NCBI GenBank assembly: GCA_963707215.1
Contig: CAVPPB010000001.1
Coordinates: 64,001 to 128,000, forward strand
Direction: 5' to 3'
Source: an uncultured Chloroflexia bacterium
Lineage (GTDB): Bacteria; Chloroflexota; Limnocylindria; Limnocylindrales; CSP1-4
Length of the DNA stretch: 64,000 bases
In this document: positions 36,921 to 46,159 of the stretch, one piece after another
Position numbering within the stretch: position 1 is the stretch's first letter
Layout of the letters: every line of letters starts with the position of its first letter
Translations under genes and position numbers: made by a program
The notes under the pieces: generated by a model
The model's database searches: none
What the model saw: the letters and a program-made list of their open reading frames with translations, nothing else
Told to the model about the DNA's origin: nothing

Positions 36921-37007
36921 GCCGGAGTGGCGGAACTGGCAGACGCGTCGGTCTCAAACACCGATGAGGGCAACCTCGTGCGGGTTCAAATCCCGCCTCC
37001 GGCACCA
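36921..37007 (+). tRNA. tRNA-Leu (anticodon CAA)
   Basis: GCCGGAG/CTCCGGC acceptor stem, TGG D-loop, tcggt-ctCAAac-accga anticodon arm, long variable arm, GGTTCAAATCC, encoded CCA. Confidence 0.97.
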
Positions 37008-37056: not shown

Positions 37057-37200
37057 GACTGGCCGAGGTGTAGCCAAACTGAGTCTTGCTGACCACCACG
37101 GCCCTCGCTCCGGGCCGGCTGGCGCGATCTCGCTGACCCAGGGGGGAAGGCGACCAGCCCACGGCCGGGCGACGGGGGCCGTCTACGGGCGCGCTGCCTC

Positions 37201-37229: not shown

Positions 37230-37239
37230 GCCCCCATGC

Positions 37240-37314
37240 GCGGGGGGCAGTGACGCGCGGCCAATCGCCTACGGCCGCCGGGACCGCGCCGAGCCACTGG
37301 CGAGACCGACCCGC
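37240..37314 (+). ncRNA. c-di-GMP-II-like (GAG variant) riboswitch, copy A
   Basis: P1 GCGGG/CCCGC, kink-turn TGACG..GAG, P3 CGCGG/CCGCG, pseudoknot CGG-C-CGCC with GGCG-AGA-CCG. Confidence 0.8.
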
Positions 37315-37396
37315 TGGAAACCGGATCCGCAAGAGGACCGGCCAAGTTCGATCAGGCTGAGATGGGCCTTCGGCATCAGGCGGTGAGAGGACTGCG

Positions 37397-37765
37397 ATGA
37401 CGACTGAGCGATCTCGTCTGACCGCCGCACTGTCTCTGGCGGTCGCGGTCGTCGTGATCGTCGTCAGCCCGATGCTGCTCGACGCCCCGAACCCGCTGTC
37501 GACGCCCGCTGCGGTGATCGTCGCGGTCGGCTGTGGCGGTGCGTTGCTCGGTGGGCGTGGCGCTGAGTGGGTCGCGTTGGCCGTCAGCGTGGCCGGGCTC
37601 GTGTTGTCCGTCCTGTGGCTCTGGCTCGCGAGCGATGGCTTCGGGCAGGGCACGCCCTGGTGGGACGACATCGTCGAGGCCGCGATCCTCGCTGCGGCAT
37701 TCCTCGTCGCGCTCGCCTTCCTGCTGCTTGCACGTCGGCAACGAGCACGGTCGCGAGCGACCTGA
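37397..37765 (+). CDS. Small 4-TM membrane protein (cargo A)
   Basis: RBS GAGAGG; four hydrophobic segments and a basic tail. Confidence 0.7.
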   Translation: MTTERSRLTAALSLAVAVVVIVVSPMLLDAPNPLSTPAAVIVAVGCGGALLGGRGAEWVALAVSVAGLVLSVLWLWLASDGFGQGTPWWDDIVEAAILAAAFLVALAFLLLARRQRARSRAT

Positions 37766-37971
37766 CCGCGCACAGCACCACCGCCGTCAAGGTCGCCTGG
37801 CAGCGTCTTCGGGTAGCCCGCGACGAGCGCGGCACTAACCCTCGCCCCAGCCCCGGCTCCACGTGTCGCCCTCGATCACGGCCTCGCCGTCCAGAGGAGC
37901 GGCAGCGTCCGGGGTCAGTTCGGGACCGCCGCCTCTAGGCAGTAGGTAGGCGTCACGCATCCTCCTGGCCT

Positions 37972-38050
37972 GGGCGAGAGGCCCTGACGCGCGGCCAATC
38001 GCCTCTGCCCGCCGGGACCGCGCCGAGCCACTGGCGAGACCGACCCGCCC
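37972..38050 (+). ncRNA. c-di-GMP-II-like riboswitch, copy B (pseudoknot partly mutated)
   Basis: Near-identical to copy A; ACGGCCGCC changed to CTGCCCGCC; invariant 24-nt block at 38025-38048. Confidence 0.72.
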
Positions 38051-38073
38051 TAGGTTTAGGGGAGGGCGCCCCG

Positions 38074-38187
38074 ATGGGCAGATCCTCGTGGGCGGCCGTG
38101 CCAGCCGCCCTCACACCTCCGGTGGCCGCCGGTCTCCTGCTCGCGACGGTAGTGGTGGGCGCCGAGTACCGACCCCCCGGGTCCTGA
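38074..38187 (+). pseudogene. 37-aa signal-peptide remnant (cargo B)
   Basis: GGAGG RBS then MGRSSWAAVPAALTPPVAAGLLLATVVVGAEYRPPGS-stop. Confidence 0.45.
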
Positions 38188-38221
38188 CCAGCCCGCGGCC
38201 GGGCGACGGGAGCCGCTCGGC

Positions 38222-38824: not shown

Positions 38825-38933
38825 CGCTCGTCATCCCTCCGGATGAGTTGAAGCCATGGCTTGAAGCTCGTGGATGAGACGCGCACAGCCGGCCAGCGTG
38901 AGCACAAGCCCACAGCCACCCCCGCCGGCCGCT

Positions 38934-39006
38934 CAGGCCCTCGGTCTCTTGCCCGGTACGTTCCACGACCGGCACCCTCGACGCCATAGCGCGGGGGGTG
39001 CTGCGC
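38934..39006 (+). promoter_or_regulatory. Cassette leader copy C: promoter plus only the first ~15 nt of the riboswitch
   Basis: CAGGCCCTCGG..TTGCCC-N18-CACCCT..GCCATAGCGCGGGGGGTGCTG matches leaders D and E, then diverges. Confidence 0.75.
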
Positions 39007-39596: not shown

Positions 39597-39725
39597 CCCG
39601 CCGCTCCACCGCCCGCGCCTCCAGCCCGTCCCAGAACGCCGAGGTGGCGCGCTGGCGGCCCTCGGCCCCGGCCTGCGCCTCCCAAGGCCGCCACGGCCGC
39701 CTCGGCCGCCTCCGGGGGCGTATCC
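39597..39725 (-). pseudogene. Small conserved ORF family, copy S1 (5'-truncated, frameshifted)
   Basis: TPPEAAEAAVAA/WEAQAGAEGRQRATSAFWDGLEARAV. Confidence 0.65.
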
Positions 39726-39733
39726 GGCTGGAC

Positions 39734-39775
39734 GAGATCGCTATCCGGCCACGGAGCCGGGGGCGAGCGACACCC
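39734..39775 (-). repeat. ~40-nt hairpin element H1
   Basis: Minus strand GGGTGTCGCTCGCCCCCGGCTCCGTGGCCGGATAGCGATCTC; matches 45051-45089. Confidence 0.75.
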
Positions 39776-39783
39776 TAGGTGGT

Positions 39784-40158
39784 TCACCTGGTCGAGAGCC
39801 ACCATCCGGCGGCGCACCCGGCGGAATAGGCGAGCACCCCGGCTGTGCCCGCGATGAGCCAGTAGGGGTAGAGGTCGGGGTCGACCCGGCCGACGACGAG
39901 GGTCCACAGGTGGGGAAAGACGGTAAAGGCAAGCCAGCCGCCGAGGGCACCCGCGATCGCGGCCCAGATCGTCCGGCCACCCCACCGGGCAGTGGCTGCC
40001 CCGACCATGACGGCCAGCAGGGGCGGAAGGGCGAAGAGCACCAGCGCGCCGAAGCTGAGCATGAGGGCCGGAAGCTCGAAGAGCGCCGCCCAGCCGGCCA
40101 CGGCGACCGCCGTTCCGATCGAGCCGATCACAAAGGCCCGGCCGGTGCCGATCGCCAT
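39784..40158 (-). CDS. Small 4-TM membrane protein
   Basis: MAIGTGRAFVIG...; four hydrophobic segments. Confidence 0.65.
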   Translation of the reverse strand: MAIGTGRAFVIGSIGTAVAVAGWAALFELPALMLSFGALVLFALPPLLAVMVGAATARWGGRTIWAAIAGALGGWLAFTVFPHLWTLVVGRVDPDLYPYWLIAGTAGVLAYSAGCAAGWWLSTR

Positions 40159-40271
40159 GGCCCAACGGTCGCCGTCACCGCTGCCTGCGAGCGGGCTGAC
40201 CCCTTGTGACTTCATCTCGGAAGGGTTGACGCCGCAGGCGACGAACCGTTGCACGAGCCAGCCCGCGGCCA

Positions 40272-40367
40272 GGCGACGGCGTCCGTTCAGGCCCTCGGCC
40301 TCTAGACCCGTACGTTCCGCGACCGGCACCCTGACCGCCATAGCGCGGGGGGCGCTGACGCACGGTC
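40272..40367 (+). repeat. 96-nt leader shared with 44173-44268 (4 mismatches), including the TAGACC-N18-CACCCT promoter
   Basis: Direct manual alignment. Confidence 0.92.
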
Positions 40368-40423
40368 GATGAGCCACGGCCGCCCAAGACGACCCTGCTG
40401 AGCCACTGGCGAGACCGACCCGC
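40345..40423 (+). ncRNA. c-di-GMP-II-like riboswitch, copy D
   Basis: GCGGG..TGACG..ACGGCCGCC..GAGCCACTGGCGAGACCGACCCGC, ~10 nt before the RBS. Confidence 0.8.
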
Positions 40424-40442
40424 CTGCCCGAGAGATGGAGTC

Positions 40443-41603
40443 TTGCGCATGCACAGGCGACTGTTCGCCGGCGCCATCGCGGTCTTGGCAACGCTGGCAA
40501 TCGCTTCGCCGGCGGTCGCTGCACCGCCGGCCAACGACACCTACTCCGGCCGGGAGTTGCTCCTCGACCCGCTGCCGATCATGGTCATGGCGGATACCAC
40601 CGAGGCAACCACTGACGCAGACGACGCCGAGCTGGATGTCCAGTGCGGTGCGTCGGCGGTCGATGCTAGCGTGTGGTACGAGTACACGCCCACGCTGGCC
40701 GGCGACTACGAGATCAACACCCTCGCCTCGGACTACAGCGTCGGCGCGATCGTGGCCATCGGCGGCCCGGGCGGCTGGACCCTGTTGAGTTGCGGTCCCG
40801 GGACCATCCCCTTCACTGCGATCGCCGGGGAGACGTACGCGATCCTGATCTTCGACGACCAGACCGACGGAGGCGGCAACGGCGGCTATCTGGAGTTCTC
40901 GATTGCGCCGGTGGTGCCGAACGAGCCGCCGGTGGCCGACCCGAACGGGCCGTACCTGGGCGCGGTTGGTGCCGCGATCTCGTTTGACGGCACTCGATCG
41001 TCGGACCCCGAAGGCGACACGCTCACCTACGACTGGGACTGGGGCGACGGCACGTCCTCTACTGACGTTGGGTCCACGCCGACCCACACCTACGATGCCG
41101 CCGGCATCTACGACGTGTGTCTGACGGTGACCGACCCATCCGGCGCATCGGGTAGGGCCTGCACGTCGGCCGTCGTCTACGACCCGTCGGCTGGGTTCGT
41201 TACCGGCGGCGGCTGGATCGACTCGGTGGCCGGCGCATACGTGCCCGACCCGACGCTGACAGGCAAGGCGACCTTCGGGTTCGTGTCCAAGTACACGAAG
41301 GGCGCCGCTACCCCGACCGGCAACACCGAATTCGTGTTCCAGACCGCCGACCTCAACTTCCATGCGACGAGCTACGACTGGCTGGTCGTGACCGGCAGCG
41401 ACTACGCCCGCTACAAGGGCATCGGCACGATCAACGGCACGGGCGACTACAAGTTCCTGCTGTGGGCCGGCGACAACGACCCGGACACGTTCCGGATCAA
41501 GATCTGGACCGAAGACGCGGCCGGCGTCGAGGCCGTCGTCTATGACAACGGGATGGATCAGCCCATCTCGGGCGGCAGCATCGTCGTCCACACCAAGAGG
41601 TAG
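40443..41603 (+). CDS. Secreted PKD-domain surface protein (cargo D)
   Basis: Signal peptide, APPANDT, ASVWYEY, PKD (NEPPVAD..SSDPEGDTLTYDWDWGDG..HTY), C-terminal GFVTGGGWI domain. Confidence 0.88.
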   Translation: MRMHRRLFAGAIAVLATLAIASPAVAAPPANDTYSGRELLLDPLPIMVMADTTEATTDADDAELDVQCGASAVDASVWYEYTPTLAGDYEINTLASDYSVGAIVAIGGPGGWTLLSCGPGTIPFTAIAGETYAILIFDDQTDGGGNGGYLEFSIAPVVPNEPPVADPNGPYLGAVGAAISFDGTRSSDPEGDTLTYDWDWGDGTSSTDVGSTPTHTYDAAGIYDVCLTVTDPSGASGRACTSAVVYDPSAGFVTGGGWIDSVAGAYVPDPTLTGKATFGFVSKYTKGAATPTGNTEFVFQTADLNFHATSYDWLVVTGSDYARYKGIGTINGTGDYKFLLWAGDNDPDTFRIKIWTEDAAGVEAVVYDNGMDQPISGGSIVVHTKR

Positions 41604-41605
41604 GA

Positions 41606-41735
41606 GCGACCGCCCACGCGTCCAGATCCGCCCAGAACGCCGAGGTGCCGCGCTCACGGCCCTCGGCGTCCCCTCGCACCTCCCAGGCCATCATCGCCGC
41701 CACGGCCTCCCCGGCAGCCTCCTGGGTGCATGCGC
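41606..41735 (-). pseudogene. Small conserved ORF family, copy S2 (degenerate)
   Basis: QEAAGEAVAAMMAWEVRGDAEGRERGTSAFWADLDAWAV. Confidence 0.6.
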
Positions 41736-42000
41736 GGTCGCGTGGACGGGGCGACCCTGGAAGACCGCGCTCTACTCCGGGCGCTCTCCTGGCTCCTCAG
41801 CCCGGAGGCCTCGGGCCTGCTCGCCTCCCACGGGTCCGGTGGTCGCATCCCGAGCCCAGTTGGTCGGATCCATCAGGCGAGAGAACCGCGCACCCAGCGC
41901 AGCCAGGCCGCCAGCACTCAGCGCGGCTAGCTCCTCATCGGCTTGGGCGCGATCCGCCTGCTGCTGCAGTGCTTCGTCGACGGCGATGAGCGCTTCGGAC

Positions 42001-42225
42001 ATGGCCTCGGCCGACCAGCCGTTCACGATCCGCTTCGCCAACAACGACGCTGGGGTCCCCCACAACGCCGAGATCAAGGACGGATCCGGAGCGACGGTCT
42101 TCCTGGGCGAGATCTTCAACGGCGTCGACACCCGCGACTATGCCGTGCCGGCGCTGCCGGCCGGGACCTACACCTTCGTCTGCACGGTCCACCCGAACAT
42201 GACCGGCACCCTGACGATCGGATAG
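42001..42225 (+). pseudogene. Cupredoxin domain fragment lacking the N-terminus and signal
   Basis: FTIRFANND..PHN...GTYTFVCTVHPNMTGTL type-1 copper ligands; no RBS or export signal upstream. Confidence 0.7.
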
Positions 42226-42280
42226 GCGACCAGCCCGTCCCCTGGGTTGCCCTCGACGTGACACTTGGATACGAATCCAC

Positions 42281-42703
42281 GTGCACGGGAGGATCGCCTT
42301 GGAGATCGCGCTCGCCGGCTTGCTCACCCTGGCGGTGCTGACGCCGGTCGCCATGTACGTGCTTCGGCGTCTCGATGAGCCAGGGCCGTCGGCGTACGCC
42401 GATCCGATGGATTCCGTCTACAGAGCGAACGCGACGGTCGATGAGCTGCTACCGACGTATGCGGCCCTCGGGTACGCGGTAGTCTCCCGCTCCGAGTTCC
42501 AGGCTCACCTCTTCCGGACCGAACCAAGCCACAAGAGGGACTCGAGCCGGAACCGACCACGAGAGATTCGACTCCACACTGACTTCACCGACAATGTCTG
42601 GGCCGACGGTCGGGGCGCCGTCTGCCCTGTATGCGGCCATCCGCGCCGTGGCGAATTCCGCTGCGCGAGGTGCAAGTCGAGCGAGACGGGACTTCCAGCG
42701 TGA
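42281..42703 (+). CDS. Membrane-anchored hypothetical protein with C-terminal zinc ribbon
   Basis: N-terminal TM; CPVC...CARC. Confidence 0.55.
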   Translation: MHGRIALEIALAGLLTLAVLTPVAMYVLRRLDEPGPSAYADPMDSVYRANATVDELLPTYAALGYAVVSRSEFQAHLFRTEPSHKRDSSRNRPREIRLHTDFTDNVWADGRGAVCPVCGHPRRGEFRCARCKSSETGLPA

Positions 42704-42934
42704 TGGACCTTCGCTGGAGGGTGACTGGCGGTTCACCAAGCGGGAGTCGCGACCGGCCAAGGCGGCTGCCAAGGGCTTCCACCTAGCCTCCCGCCACGGC
42801 CCCCGCTTCCCAGTACGCCCCATCGCCGCGCTGGCGGCCCTCGGCCTCGGCCAGAGCGGATCCGTCGTTTCGTCGTTCATCAGGGGCATCGTAGTCTGGC
42901 GCGGGCTCGGCCAGCCGGAGACGGGGGCGGCCGA

Positions 42935-43528
42935 CTAGACCTTCCCGACCGCGGCCGTGCCCACCGAGATGGTCGGTTCGCGGAACGGGCTGCGGTCCGC
43001 GAGCCGGGTGAACGTCACCGTGACGAGCACGGAGCCCTTCAGGAAGTACCCACGCTCCAGATCGTCGACCCAGAGGGCGCCATCGCCGATGTCGAGCGCC
43101 TCCGCTCGGTCAGCCAGCGCCTGCTTGGTGTCGGCGAACGTGTTGGCCCCGTTGCCGGGCTCGACCATCACCGACAAGCCACCCCAGTCCTCGACCCAGC
43201 GACATTCGGTCACATTCGGATCCTGGTCGGATCCGAGCCGGTTGAGGTCACCGTCAGTGGCGCTGGCGGCGTCCAGGCCCAGGGCCGCGGCGACGTCAGC
43301 GGCGGTGACCAGCTGACACGCGGTCAGGTCGGTGCCCGGGGCCGCCGGGGCACCCCCACTCTCGTTCTCGCCGGTGCCCTCGCTCGCCTCGGCCTCGGGC
43401 GATGACGTGGCCGAGGCCCCACTCGGGGCGCTGGTGGTCGCCGCACCGCCGCAGCCCGCGGTCGCGAGCAGCACGCTCAGGACGATCGTGGCGGTCGTAC
43501 GACCGCCGATTACGTGGACGCTCAACAT
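42935..43528 (-). CDS. Lipoprotein (DUF3558-like)
   Basis: Lipobox LATAGC, Ser/Ala linker, ACQLVTAADV..CRW, DIGDGALW. Confidence 0.75.
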   Translation of the reverse strand: MLSVHVIGGRTTATIVLSVLLATAGCGGAATTSAPSGASATSSPEAEASEGTGENESGGAPAAPGTDLTACQLVTAADVAAALGLDAASATDGDLNRLGSDQDPNVTECRWVEDWGGLSVMVEPGNGANTFADTKQALADRAEALDIGDGALWVDDLERGYFLKGSVLVTVTFTRLADRSPFREPTISVGTAAVGKV

Positions 43529-43750
43529 CGCGCCACCCCCTTCTCCTGCATCGTGGGCGGCACCAGTCGAAGCGCCGCCGGCCGGGACCTACGGAGAGCT
43601 GCCTCGACCTCGCAGGCGTCCCTCGAATCGTACGACCAAGCACCAGCCCCTCCAGGGCCTAACACCCGGTGGCGAGGTGACCGACAGGCCGTTCCGGGCG
43701 CAACACTCGAGCCCGATGGGCGTCATCCCGCTGATCGAAGGAAGGTGCCG

Positions 43751-43990
43751 ATGTCCCTTGGCTGTTCCGGGCGGGCGGCGATCTTCGCGCTCGTCCTCCT
43801 CGTCGGCGCGCTGCCCGCTGGGGTGATCGCGGGAGCCGTGCCAGGCCGGATCGTTGGGCTGCTACAGCGGCGTGGGGCCGTTCCTCCTCCTCGTGGTGGT
43901 CGTGGTTGCCGCGGCTCTGATCGCGGCCTCACTCCCCTGGGCGAGAGGACGAGCCCGGATGGACGCTGGCCGCTGCATCGCCCGCGACCG
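43751..43990 (+). pseudogene. Small membrane protein remnant (frameshifted)
   Basis: GAAGGAAGGT RBS; hydrophobic segments in two frames. Confidence 0.3.
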
Positions 43991-44245
43991 CAACGGCTTC
44001 GAGGGCATCCTCGAGGCCGGCCACGTCGGTCCCCATGCGGCCTCCAGGGTGATCCGGAGCTGGGTCGACGAGCCCACGCCGCCCACCGAGAAGGAGTCGG
44101 CAGGCGTACTGGCCGAGGAAGCCACGACGGCAACCCCGGACCAACCCCACGGTCCTGACAAGCCCACGACCGGGCGACGCCGTCCGTTCAGGCCCTCGGC
44201 CTCTAGACCCGTACGTTCCACGACCGGCACCCTGACCGCCATGGC

Positions 44246-44324
44246 ACGGGGGGCGCTGACGCACGGTCCCAGAGCTACGGCCGCCTGAGCGGACCGTGCC
44301 GAGCCACTGGCGAGACCGACCCGC
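44246..44324 (+). ncRNA. c-di-GMP-II-like riboswitch, copy E
   Basis: P3 CACGGTCC/GGACCGTG, ACGGCCGCC loop, invariant 3' block at 44301-44324. Confidence 0.82.
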
Positions 44325-44368
44325 TGGACCCATCCGCAACGACGCGGAAGCTCGGGAGGAACACGGTC

Positions 44369-45022
44369 ATGGGTTCGGTCTCGCACTTGCGGCGCTGGCG
44401 CCTCGTCGTCGGCATCATGATCCTGAGCCTATTCGCGATCCCGGCAGCGGGCATCGTGGTCGGCGCCACGACGCCCTTCCAGCAGGTCATCGTGACCAAC
44501 CCCGAGGAGAGTCCAATCCCCGTGTCGCTGACGGGCAGCAACGCGATCTCGGGCACCGTCACTGTCGGCAACCTGCCCGCGACCCAGCCCGTCTCGGGGA
44601 CGGTAAACGTGGGGAACAGCCCGACGGTGCAACTCGCCTCCGACTCGATAGTGGCCGTCGTCAACCCGACAGACGACCAGCCGCTTCTGGTTCAGGAGGT
44701 TGCTTCGGCGACGCCGTCACCCGCGGAGATCCTGCCACCGACTGGCAACACCATCATCGGCCCTGCCCGGCTCCAGATGGACTCCGTTGGCACATATCCA
44801 ATCCTGAGGGGCACGGTGTCGCTCGACTTCTGCATCACGGTCGTTCTCCTCGATGCCAACGGCTACGCGGAATTCCAAGCGAACCCGACCAGTGATTCCA
44901 CCTGGTACGGCATCTGGCCCGATGGCCCATTGGCAAGGTGTGAGGCGAGCAAGCAGAACGCCAACATCGACAATCATGTGGCCGGGACAGCTCTGGTCTA
45001 TCGCATCGACAGAATCCCCTAA
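44369..45022 (+). CDS. Secreted hypothetical protein (cargo E)
   Basis: GGGAGG RBS; signal peptide; QVIVTNP..PIPV, SGTVTVGN/SGTVNVGN repeats. Confidence 0.75.
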   Translation: MGSVSHLRRWRLVVGIMILSLFAIPAAGIVVGATTPFQQVIVTNPEESPIPVSLTGSNAISGTVTVGNLPATQPVSGTVNVGNSPTVQLASDSIVAVVNPTDDQPLLVQEVASATPSPAEILPPTGNTIIGPARLQMDSVGTYPILRGTVSLDFCITVVLLDANGYAEFQANPTSDSTWYGIWPDGPLARCEASKQNANIDNHVAGTALVYRIDRIP

Positions 45023-45050
45023 CGATTGGGGCCGAGCCGTCACCTCCCAG

Positions 45051-45089
45051 GGGTGTCGCTCCCCGGCTCCGTGGCCCGCTAGCGATCTC
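45051..45089 (+). repeat. ~40-nt hairpin element H2
   Basis: GGGTGTCGCTCCCCGGCTCCGTGGCCCGCTAGCGATCTC, about 30 nt after the cargo E stop. Confidence 0.75.
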
Positions 45090-45322
45090 CCACCGAGTAG
45101 CACCGCGACGACAACGTCCTGCCTGCGCCACGGTTCGGACATAGCCCGACGCTAGCCCTTGCTCAGAGGCACGCCGATGCGGATGTCCCGCAACCAGGGC
45201 GACCGGCCCAGGGAAGGGACGCGGGCCGTTGCGTCGACGCACCGGGTTCGCAGGCCCTCAGGCCGGCTGGTCGAGGATCGCGGGCTGCGTCTGGAGCACC
45301 GGTGGCCTACGCTCGGGGCATC

Positions 45323-45402
45323 GGCGGGAGGCACTGACGCAAGATCCGAGCCCACGGCCGCCGCACCGGACCGCGCCGAGCCACTGGCGAGACCGACCCG
45401 CC
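45323..45402 (+). ncRNA. c-di-GMP-II-like riboswitch, copy F
   Basis: GGCGGG/CCCGCC P1, TGACG, ACGGCCGCC, invariant block at 45378-45401; TACGCT -10 at 45308-45313. Confidence 0.8.
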
Positions 45403-45425
45403 CGTCTTACCCTGGAGGTGGCGGT

Positions 45426-45977
45426 ATCCGCAGGATCGGTCTCGTCGCGCTGGTGGTGCTCGCCTTGATGGCGTCCGCGACGATCGTCTCGGCCGACAAC
45501 GGCAAGGCGGTCCCCGGCTGGAACTCGAACTCCAGCAAGTACACGGCCATCTCGGTCGCCAACCCCAACGACCCGAGCGAGGTGTCGGCCACCCTGGTCC
45601 GCGAGCGAACCTCCGACGCGGTCCTCGACCAGCACATCACGGCCCTCAACAACTGTGACTGGGCCGGGCTGATGCAGCAGTACCCCGATCAGTACGAGCT
45701 GCGACTCCCCGGCGGGGTACTCGTCTCCGGTCGGGAGGAAGCGGCCGAGACGTTCGCCGGCTTCGTCAAGCCATACACCGAGGGCGGGCTCTGCGGGATC
45801 ATCTTCAGCGAGGTCTCCCGCGATGTCGTCGCCGGCACCCTGGCGGTGAGCTGGGTCGCCGATGCCCCCTTCCTGGCTGAGCCGTACTACGGCGCGGACG
45901 CCTACATCACCGACGACGGCCTGATGGTCTCGATGGTCAGCACCTTCGACGGCGCGGAGCTGGTCTTCGCTCCCTAG
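45426..45977 (+). CDS. Secreted NTF2/SnoaL-like protein (cargo F), apparent ATC start
   Basis: GGAGGT, 6 nt, then ATC-RRIGLVALVVLALMASATIVSA; VLDQHITALNNCDW..GRE..DAYITDDGLMV. Confidence 0.75.
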   Translation: MRRIGLVALVVLALMASATIVSADNGKAVPGWNSNSSKYTAISVANPNDPSEVSATLVRERTSDAVLDQHITALNNCDWAGLMQQYPDQYELRLPGGVLVSGREEAAETFAGFVKPYTEGGLCGIIFSEVSRDVVAGTLAVSWVADAPFLAEPYYGADAYITDDGLMVSMVSTFDGAELVFAP

Positions 45978-46159
45978 GCCGTCCTGGACGCGAAGAACGC
46001 CGGGGTGCCGCGCCCTCGGCCCTCGGCCTCAGCCAGCCCCTCCCAGGCCGCTACGGCCTCCTCGGCCGCCTCCGGGGGCATCCGGGCGACATCGCGCAAC
46101 CGGGCGACTTGGGCGGCCCGGGGGGCCTGGTGGATGCGCTCGGGATCGCGACGTCGCAT
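45974..46159 (-). CDS. Small conserved ORF family, copy S3 (61 aa, most complete)
   Basis: MRRRDPERIHQAPRAAQVARLRDVARMPPEAAEEAVAAWEGLAEAEGRGRGTPAFFASRTA. Confidence 0.65.
   Translation of the reverse strand: MRRRDPERIHQAPRAAQVARLRDVARMPPEAAEEAVAAWEGLAEAEGRGRGTPAFFASRTA

Follow-up and report, generated by a model that had tools for sequence, protein, structure and literature searches.

A 64-kb window of the genome G000 (contig C1:64001-128000), from an uncultured Limnocylindrales bacterium of the phylum Chloroflexota, carries, downstream of a tRNA-Leu gene, repeated copies of a short sequence, designated S here, that lie tail-to-tail with cargo genes. This arrangement raises the question of whether S is a gene in its own right and what its copies do at the ends of the cargo. 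S proves to be a genuine gene that stands alone, is restricted to one lineage and encodes a three-helix cytoplasmic protein of about 70 amino acids (aa); the copies in the window are pieces of pseudogenes, S3 probably so. The reading preferred here, which we regard as probable, combines this gene with a module of repeats named P, Q and U and with pseudogene scars. Positions of S1, S2, S3 and S4 refer to the window (Table 1); C1, C2 and C3 are contigs of G000, a genome with a GC content of 72% and a completeness of 85%, and G001 is a relative from the same genus.

The S family and its remnants in the window

Ten copies or fragments of S were found in G000, six of them besides the four in the window, and only one is intact, namely X3 (C3:185889-186113), encoding the 74-aa protein P0003. 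A search with P0003 returned seven close proteins and matches in 33 of 301 genomes of the same Limnocylindrales family (probably CSP1-4), and a 28-row profile gave matches in 72 of the 301 (a tally that counts G000 itself and one unpublished genome, G097), with up to 19 per genome, many of them partial. The matches L009, L010, L031 and L037, as well as a 25-bit DNA match at C1:899718 within a long gene, were excluded from the copy counts as spurious. At E ≤ 1e-3 the profile search yielded 877 clusters (50% identity), and 109 of 148 among the matches listed were 60–90 aa long. In a phylum-wide sample, with only 14 candidates scored per genome, S turned up solely in this family, in 2 of its 23 genomes and in 0 of 377 others.

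The homologues evolve as coding sequence. From 48 unique open copies, 23 pairs at 70–80% identity gave a median ratio of nonsynonymous to synonymous substitution rates (dN/dS) of 0.27, and four pairs above 80% identity gave 0.33, the set consisting of selected open frames and one identical pair lying outside the bins. Differences by codon position in the 23 pairs were 264/270/629, a 2.4-fold excess at the third position, and each of the five other frames contained stops in 26–40 of the 48 copies. The AlphaFold model comprises three helices, with a predicted local distance difference test score (pLDDT) of 85. Residues A13, R15, L22, W40, E41, W57 and W63 are near-invariant, and residues 1–25 are basic (mean net charge +3.2) with the remainder acidic (−2.1). 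A preliminary description of this locus had supposed a small helical protein gene of an unrecognized family, and both the coding-type conservation and the structure prediction bear this out. No sequence match for the 28 members was obtained in Pfam, NCBIfam, PHROG or PDB, the best E-values being 0.009–0.1 for single members only.

Foldseek comparison with PDB and viral models gave no match at E ≤ 0.001. With S3 as the query no match was obtained, whereas the intact copy did give matches. Locus scans of genome contigs (with P0003), viral contigs (two proteins) and metagenome contigs (a 7-row alignment) produced no confirmed loci, and phage records, plasmid records and the ESM Atlas contained no S match; these searches are insensitive, so that a null result there does not mean absence. 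In the literature searched, no description of the S family was found, and no passage on it was matched in the main text of PMC13212565. S is a new protein family, and the island that hosts it is a variant of a known island kind; with at least 877 clusters, this unannotated family can serve as a marker of flexible islands in one large uncultured Chloroflexota family. Rare fusions of S with longer C-terminal regions also exist (P0081 and P0113, of 222 and 363 aa), the extension of P0113 having a weak similarity to DUF5677.

The preliminary description had listed three open reading frames (ORFs) of about 60–70 aa. Its sequences and peptide readings, three of each, are indeed present, and so is the DNA common to them, but none of the three is an intact gene, and the fourth stub, S4, had been overlooked. 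The copies are similar far beyond chance (E = 1e-22 for S3 versus S1 and 1e-14 for S3 versus S2). S1 retains nucleotides 68–198 of X3, has no start and shows two frame changes relative to the intact copy (AGYAP / PPEAAEAAVAA / WEAQ...); S2 spans roughly nucleotides 75–185, helix 1 being gone, and S4 covers nucleotides 122–167. The frame of S3 ends ahead of helix 3, so that two of the three near-invariant tryptophans are lost; its helix 1 contains a proline, and no TAnnnT precedes its ATG. Intact membership of the family was found for none of the four. On account of the frameshifts, the missing 5' halves and the lack of helix 3 and TAnnnT in S3, all four are read as pseudogene pieces, S3 as a probable one; taken by themselves, they are scars. 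The core common to S1, S2 and S3 begins 17–37 nt past the cargo stops, in agreement with the earlier figure of within about 40 nt; closeness to a convergent stop is nothing special in this genome, in which 167 of 391 convergent gene pairs are at most 40 bp apart.

The stops of S3 and of its cargo overlap in CTAG, a tetranucleotide about nine-fold under-represented in G000 (939 observed versus approximately 8300 expected). CTAG/TAG was considered as a crossover core and found to be a weak candidate: TAG is the stop of 37 out of 59 S frames, or of 18 out of 36 when counted per genome, and of 688 among 2639 genes.

Many S copies appear to be leaderless single-gene transcripts, because a TAnnnT and a CTGTCA-like motif are placed close to the start. 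Among the 39 S copies with a start codon, TAnnnT is found at −11 to −14 in 15 and the CTGTCA-like motif near −30 in 14; TAnnnT lies 12–14 nt ahead of the start in 254 of 2637 called G000 genes. The combination CTGTCA-N12-TAnnnT was recognized ahead of 14 of the 39 S copies, to which a looser pattern was applied, and ahead of 8 of 2637 genes. A host regulon of the DNA-damage type was unsupported, since a matrix built from nine S promoters reached a maximum of 16.9 in G000 versus 26–38 for the training sites. The identity of CTGTCAC with the anticodon loop of tRNA-Asp was taken as coincidence because the flanks differ. In genus g38 the S copies (L077-L079, L083, L084), unlike the leaderless copies of other genera, have a leader of about 45 nt, in which by eye a GGAGG ribosome site lies inside a predicted hairpin.

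Stacked units in tRNA islands and their probable reshuffling

Repeat P measures about 85 nt and has 22 copies in G000, Q is a variant of its second half, and U, with 19 copies, stands upstream of most island riboswitches. At X3, P, Q, the promoter and S follow in unbroken order, the full P-Q-S unit occupying C3:185770-186113, and the 5' piece of a second unit lies at C3:396590-396750. Within 5 kb of an S copy in G000, P is always on the same strand (19/19), with U and the cyclic di-GMP (c-di-GMP) riboswitch on the opposite one (7/8 each). The same orientations were observed in 20 chosen contigs of G001 (P 3/3, U 3/3, riboswitch 2/2), where contig C270 has the order P/U, cargo, S (reverse), riboswitch, cargo. 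The unit of this genus thus reads cargo <- riboswitch <- U, then P -> Q -> S, in other words 'P, Q, promoter, S' placed back-to-back with 'U promoter, c-di-GMP-II riboswitch, cargo', and several of these are stacked in every island at a tRNA 3' end. Stacking brings a cargo led by a riboswitch up against the 3' end of the S that comes next, and so gives the tail-to-tail pattern. S does belong to an ancestral module, as supposed, but its window copies are pseudogenes, and its partner is the hairpin P/Q upstream of it in the adjoining unit, not the cargo that it abuts. A 455-aa ORF (L001:6325-7692), situated immediately upstream of the intact P-Q-S unit, has no Pfam match and, by eye, a nuclease-like D...EVK motif.

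Nine of the ten G000 copies are situated 0.3–9.1 kb 3' of tRNA-Leu, -Asn, -Gly, -Pro or -Lys, and the intact X3 sits in a non-tRNA island beside mltG. Among relatives, a tRNA was present in 25 of 48 windows of at least 17 kb, and in 18 of 36 when one per genome was counted, versus 22% of random 19-kb windows of G000 (p = 2e-4; kin are not independent, and the baseline comes from one genome). The islands hold non-core genes at the tRNA 3' end, S being the most recurrent of them, and after tRNA-Leu the island content of G001 differs from that of G000. The linkage to tRNA islands expected earlier therefore holds across the family, but that to riboswitches does not: among 55 loci scanned with Rfam, it is confined to this genus (G001) and one other genome (G021). 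In the tRNA-Leu island of the window no integrase was found; a broken tyrosine integrase adjoins tRNA-Lys (L003:8853-9098; C3:400514-401097). In the islands of genome G158 (L072:760-830, L073:1378-1930, L075:7650-7700, L076:4730-4800), a second gene is scattered as scars, in the form of several 3' fragments and a single 5' piece; by its KxDG motif it looks like that of a small ATP-dependent DNA ligase.

Probable traces of exchange between the islands are found at the repeats. The segment 39219-39728, comprising the 135-aa cargo and S1, is duplicated in the tRNA-Lys island (C3:399559-399052, 96% over 511 bp), and 43937-44258 in the tRNA-Pro island (C3:154512-154832, 96%); both segments end within S or U/riboswitch. 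Two copy types are combined in S1 as a mosaic (permutation p = 0.026 and 0.007), and one copy of U, at C3:154745, changes parent midway (p = 0.001). The fragment ends are scattered from −119 to +122 (5') and from −18 to +209 (3'). One low-share DNA run displayed no joints. The duplicated segments and mosaics uphold the earlier suggestion of a 3' anchor, the window copies acting as homology patches at cassette joints. The recombinase genes of G000 amount to two XerC/D-like genes and the broken integrase beside tRNA-Lys, no match to Y1, IS110 or serine recombinases being obtained in this 85% complete genome.

Mosaic copies, variable breakpoints and the failure to find a dedicated recombinase suggest homologous reshuffling through the repeats as the simplest mechanism. 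The islands would first have been seeded by tRNA-targeting elements, a pattern known from other islands (PMC3146451). RecA-type crossover or conversion inside the 60–250-bp repeats S, P, U and riboswitch would then reshuffle the stacks, the far end of an exchanged segment being closed by an illegitimate joint. S1, S2, S3 and S4 would be the scars of this process, pseudogenes whose homology remains available for exchange. S copies and the neighbouring hairpin repeat mark joints between swappable genes and probably help to reshuffle them. The locus would then represent a worked example of islands whose reshuffling proceeds through pseudogene and leader repeats of their own, no dedicated recombinase having been found.

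A hairpin homologous to P was found in other genera and aligned to it by MAFFT; two separate hidden Markov models gave no cross-detection. Of its 31 matches, 28 have the orientation of S, and in G011, G158, G166 and G228 it immediately precedes or follows S. It was detected in 19 of 70 S-positive versus 9 of 80 S-negative genomes (p = 0.02), a comparison that is circular, since the hairpin model was built from S-positive genomes, and insensitive, since G001, a carrier of P, was missed. G158 (L072-L076) has, in addition, a different hairpin repeat of about 90 nt beginning TAG-GCTGTCAC, with at least 15 copies.

P and its homologue in other genera (P/R hairpins) could also be regarded as sites resembling the attC sites of integrons, used by an unidentified recombinase, with S as an accessory protein or a frequent cassette. 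A stop codon often immediately precedes P, the ends of which form inverted arms, and the orientation of P within arrays is strictly uniform, all 19 P copies near S lying on the S strand as co-oriented palindromic sites between genes, although with weak folding z-scores. The positions next to S in the four genomes just named and the CTGTCAC core common to the hairpin loop of other genera and the S promoters point the same way. However, S, P and Q fragments terminate at many different positions, no candidate recombinase was found beyond the XerC/D-like genes, and covariation in the hairpin is weak (2 of 9 pairs). The attC R''/R' cores are RYYYAAC / GTTRRRY; by eye, neither they nor other GTTRRRY-type cores were seen at the ends of the aligned repeats. 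We consider this explanation unlikely. Also unlikely is the strong, mobility-steering form of the accessory role of S considered below, in which S would be the signature protein of an integrase-less, integron-like Limnocylindrales cassette system, binding the P/R hairpin and steering host recombination there; in it, the CTGTCAC loop of the hairpin would be the motif that precedes the promoter of S itself. If true, c-di-GMP-controlled surface genes would be shuffled among tRNA islands.

Several points weigh against the preferred model of gene, repeat module and scars. The orientation counts stem from about five islands, within which copies are not independent, and the hairpins fold only modestly better than shuffled sequences (z = −1.3 to −1.8). 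No hairpin match was obtained in 51 of the 70 S-bearing genomes, including 13 of 13 of genus g28, in a search that also missed G001. The intact copy looks relaxed, with a dN/dS of 0.54 between X3 and its G001 homologue. A recombinase may be missing from the assembly because the genome is 85% complete. Finally, nucleic-acid binding by S is hypothetical, no recombination event was observed, and the mosaics fit conversion as well as crossover and point to no particular enzyme.

Possible functions of the S protein

Four functions were weighed, among which that of ordinary regulatory cargo ranks first, followed by an accessory factor or regulator acting on the hairpin/promoter motif, then a recombination directionality factor and, last, a mimic. 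The role in mobility or regulation that had been proposed from the start is putative; the particular ideas of a sigma region 2, a RuvA C-terminal domain (RuvA-C) or a directionality factor were unsupported.

S may well be a useful cargo gene, its product perhaps a small protein of stress response or regulation, and may be carried along by the flexible islands with no mobility role, its link to P being a historical accident; this has somewhat less than an even chance. Apart from S itself, no neighbour is conserved except extracytoplasmic function (ECF) sigma factors in 12 of 39 genomes, and homology is limited to the gene and its leader (about −56 to +240) in 26 of 28 close pairs. Many S-bearing genomes hold one copy only, and the leaderless promoter, recognizable in 15 of 39 copies, belongs to S alone. 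An ordinary passenger would, however, hardly be expected to be the most recurrent non-core gene of the islands, co-oriented with a hairpin in several genera and fragmented many times per genome.

For the intact S protein we nevertheless adopt, at odds slightly below those of ordinary cargo, an accessory or regulatory role on the part of an island-borne factor: its basic N-terminal helix would bind nucleic acid or a partner, the most likely target being the hairpin/promoter motif preceding S. If the hairpin is indeed its target, S would be the protein that has been missing from hairpin-punctuated arrays.

The size of S and its basic N-terminus would also suit an excisionase or recombination directionality factor that has outlasted, together with other relics, the integrative elements that targeted tRNAs, and S lies 3' of tRNAs, mostly pointing at them, with integrase relics in some islands. 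Yet 23 of the 70 S-positive genomes have large serine recombinases, compared with 35 of the 80 S-negative ones (p = 0.18), pieces of tyrosine integrases are clustered with S in no more than 4 of 39 genomes, and the model of S is all-helical, without the beta wing that lambda-type Xis possesses. Such a function is improbable.

Structural comparison raised the further idea of a mimic of sigma region 2 or RuvA domain III, with RNA polymerase, an anti-sigma factor or RuvB as its binding partner. Sigma region 2 accounted for about 20 of the 50 highest structural rows when the first model was used (Z ≤ 6.5), and with a better one RuvA domain III was matched (Z = 5.8, root-mean-square deviation (rmsd) 2.0); ECF genes are present in 8 of 36 S windows versus 9%. 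The sigma excess faded with the better model, and all matches remain at Z ≤ 7.1, a range generic for helical bundles, as are the values of 5–6.5 for the two folds. The best match was the N-terminal domain of ArsC1' (3t38; Z = 7.1, rmsd 1.9 over 60 residues). Profile scores of 13.5 (ECF) and 11.8 (RuvA-C) were not above the best of 58 unrelated decoys (up to 15.7), hhalign giving a probability of 0.7% each, and mimicry is very improbable.

The tRNA-Leu island and comparison with known systems

The features of the island, which contains five c-di-GMP-II-GAG riboswitches, are compiled in Table 1. Genome-wide, G000 has 17 c-di-GMP-II riboswitch matches above the cut-off, about half of them preceded by the shared leader U, and many lead small genes with hydrophobic N-termini. 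A cupredoxin-like 3' fragment at 42003-42220 is 97% identical to C2:327380-327163 and has three further paralogues.

Table 1. S copies, repeats, riboswitches and cargo of the tRNA-Leu island, in window positions
Feature	Position	Strand	Remarks
tRNA-Leu(CAA)	36921..37007	+	Island on 3' side
P, full copy	37102..37186	-	5' part of P-Q-S unit
c-di-GMP-II-GAG riboswitch 1	37234..37320	+	Leads 122-aa membrane ORF 37397-37765
c-di-GMP-II-GAG riboswitch 2	37968..38054	+	No clear cargo
P, partial	38179..38221	-	
U (promoter-side leader)	38923..38998	+	No Rfam riboswitch match here
Cargo ORF, 135 aa	39189..39596	+	No Pfam match
S1	39598..39728	-	Frameshifted 3' half of S gene; mosaic of two copy types
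Q (S upstream region)	39725..39785	+	Inverted relative to S1
Membrane cargo ORF	39787..40164	-	P orientation; 77% copy at C3:182901-182263
P, partial	40212..40292	-	Back-to-back with U
U + riboswitch 3 (40339-40428)	40270..40428	+	
PKD-domain cargo ORF, 384 aa	40449..41603	+	N-terminal hydrophobic leader
S2	41609..41733	-	3' half of S gene without start; 9-nt insertion
S4	42807..42855	-	49-nt stub of S gene
Lipoprotein-like cargo ORF	42935..43528	-	Weak DUF3558, below cut-off
P, partial	44151..44193	-	Back-to-back with U
U + riboswitch 4 (44240-44328)	44167..44328	+	Leads cargo ORF 44369-45022
Q, partial	45051..45089	-	Co-oriented with S
Riboswitch 5	45318..45407	+	Leads SnoaL-like cargo ORF ending 45977
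S3	45974..46159	-	61-codon open frame, 3'-truncated, without upstream TAnnnT; probable pseudogene

The protein shares its helix arrangement with small three-helix bundles (3t38, RuvA domain III, sigma region 2), but it has a family-specific Trp/Arg/Glu core, and sequence or profile support for a relationship is lacking. In integron arrays and in clusters of attC sites lacking integrases (CALINs), co-oriented imperfect hairpins of about 60–85 nt follow stop codons between short unrelated genes. Similarly, co-oriented imperfect hairpins after stop codons separate short unrelated genes here; in contrast to such arrays, no integron integrase or attC core was seen, cargo occurs in both orientations, repeats are often partial and a protein gene is contained in the repeat unit.

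The ssrA islands of Dehalococcoides (McMurdie et al. 2011, PMC3146451) are tandem genomic islands anchored at a tRNA or tmRNA. They too belong to Chloroflexota, with non-core cargo stacked at the 3' ends of stable RNAs and an integrase relic, which here is next to tRNA-Lys. Unlike them, the islands studied here have no syntenic integration module; their units are 1–2 kb, five tRNAs as well as non-tRNA sites are used, and P, Q, U and S provide the punctuation. In illegitimate recombination assisted by homology, according to PMC2884548, a homologous anchor and a non-homologous joint lead to replaced segments, a RecA threshold of about 30 bp being quoted there. The replacement from one anchor would be similar in both cases, and the anchors of the present islands exceed that threshold; in contrast to that system, which was described for transformable model species, they are dispersed pseudogene and leader repeats.

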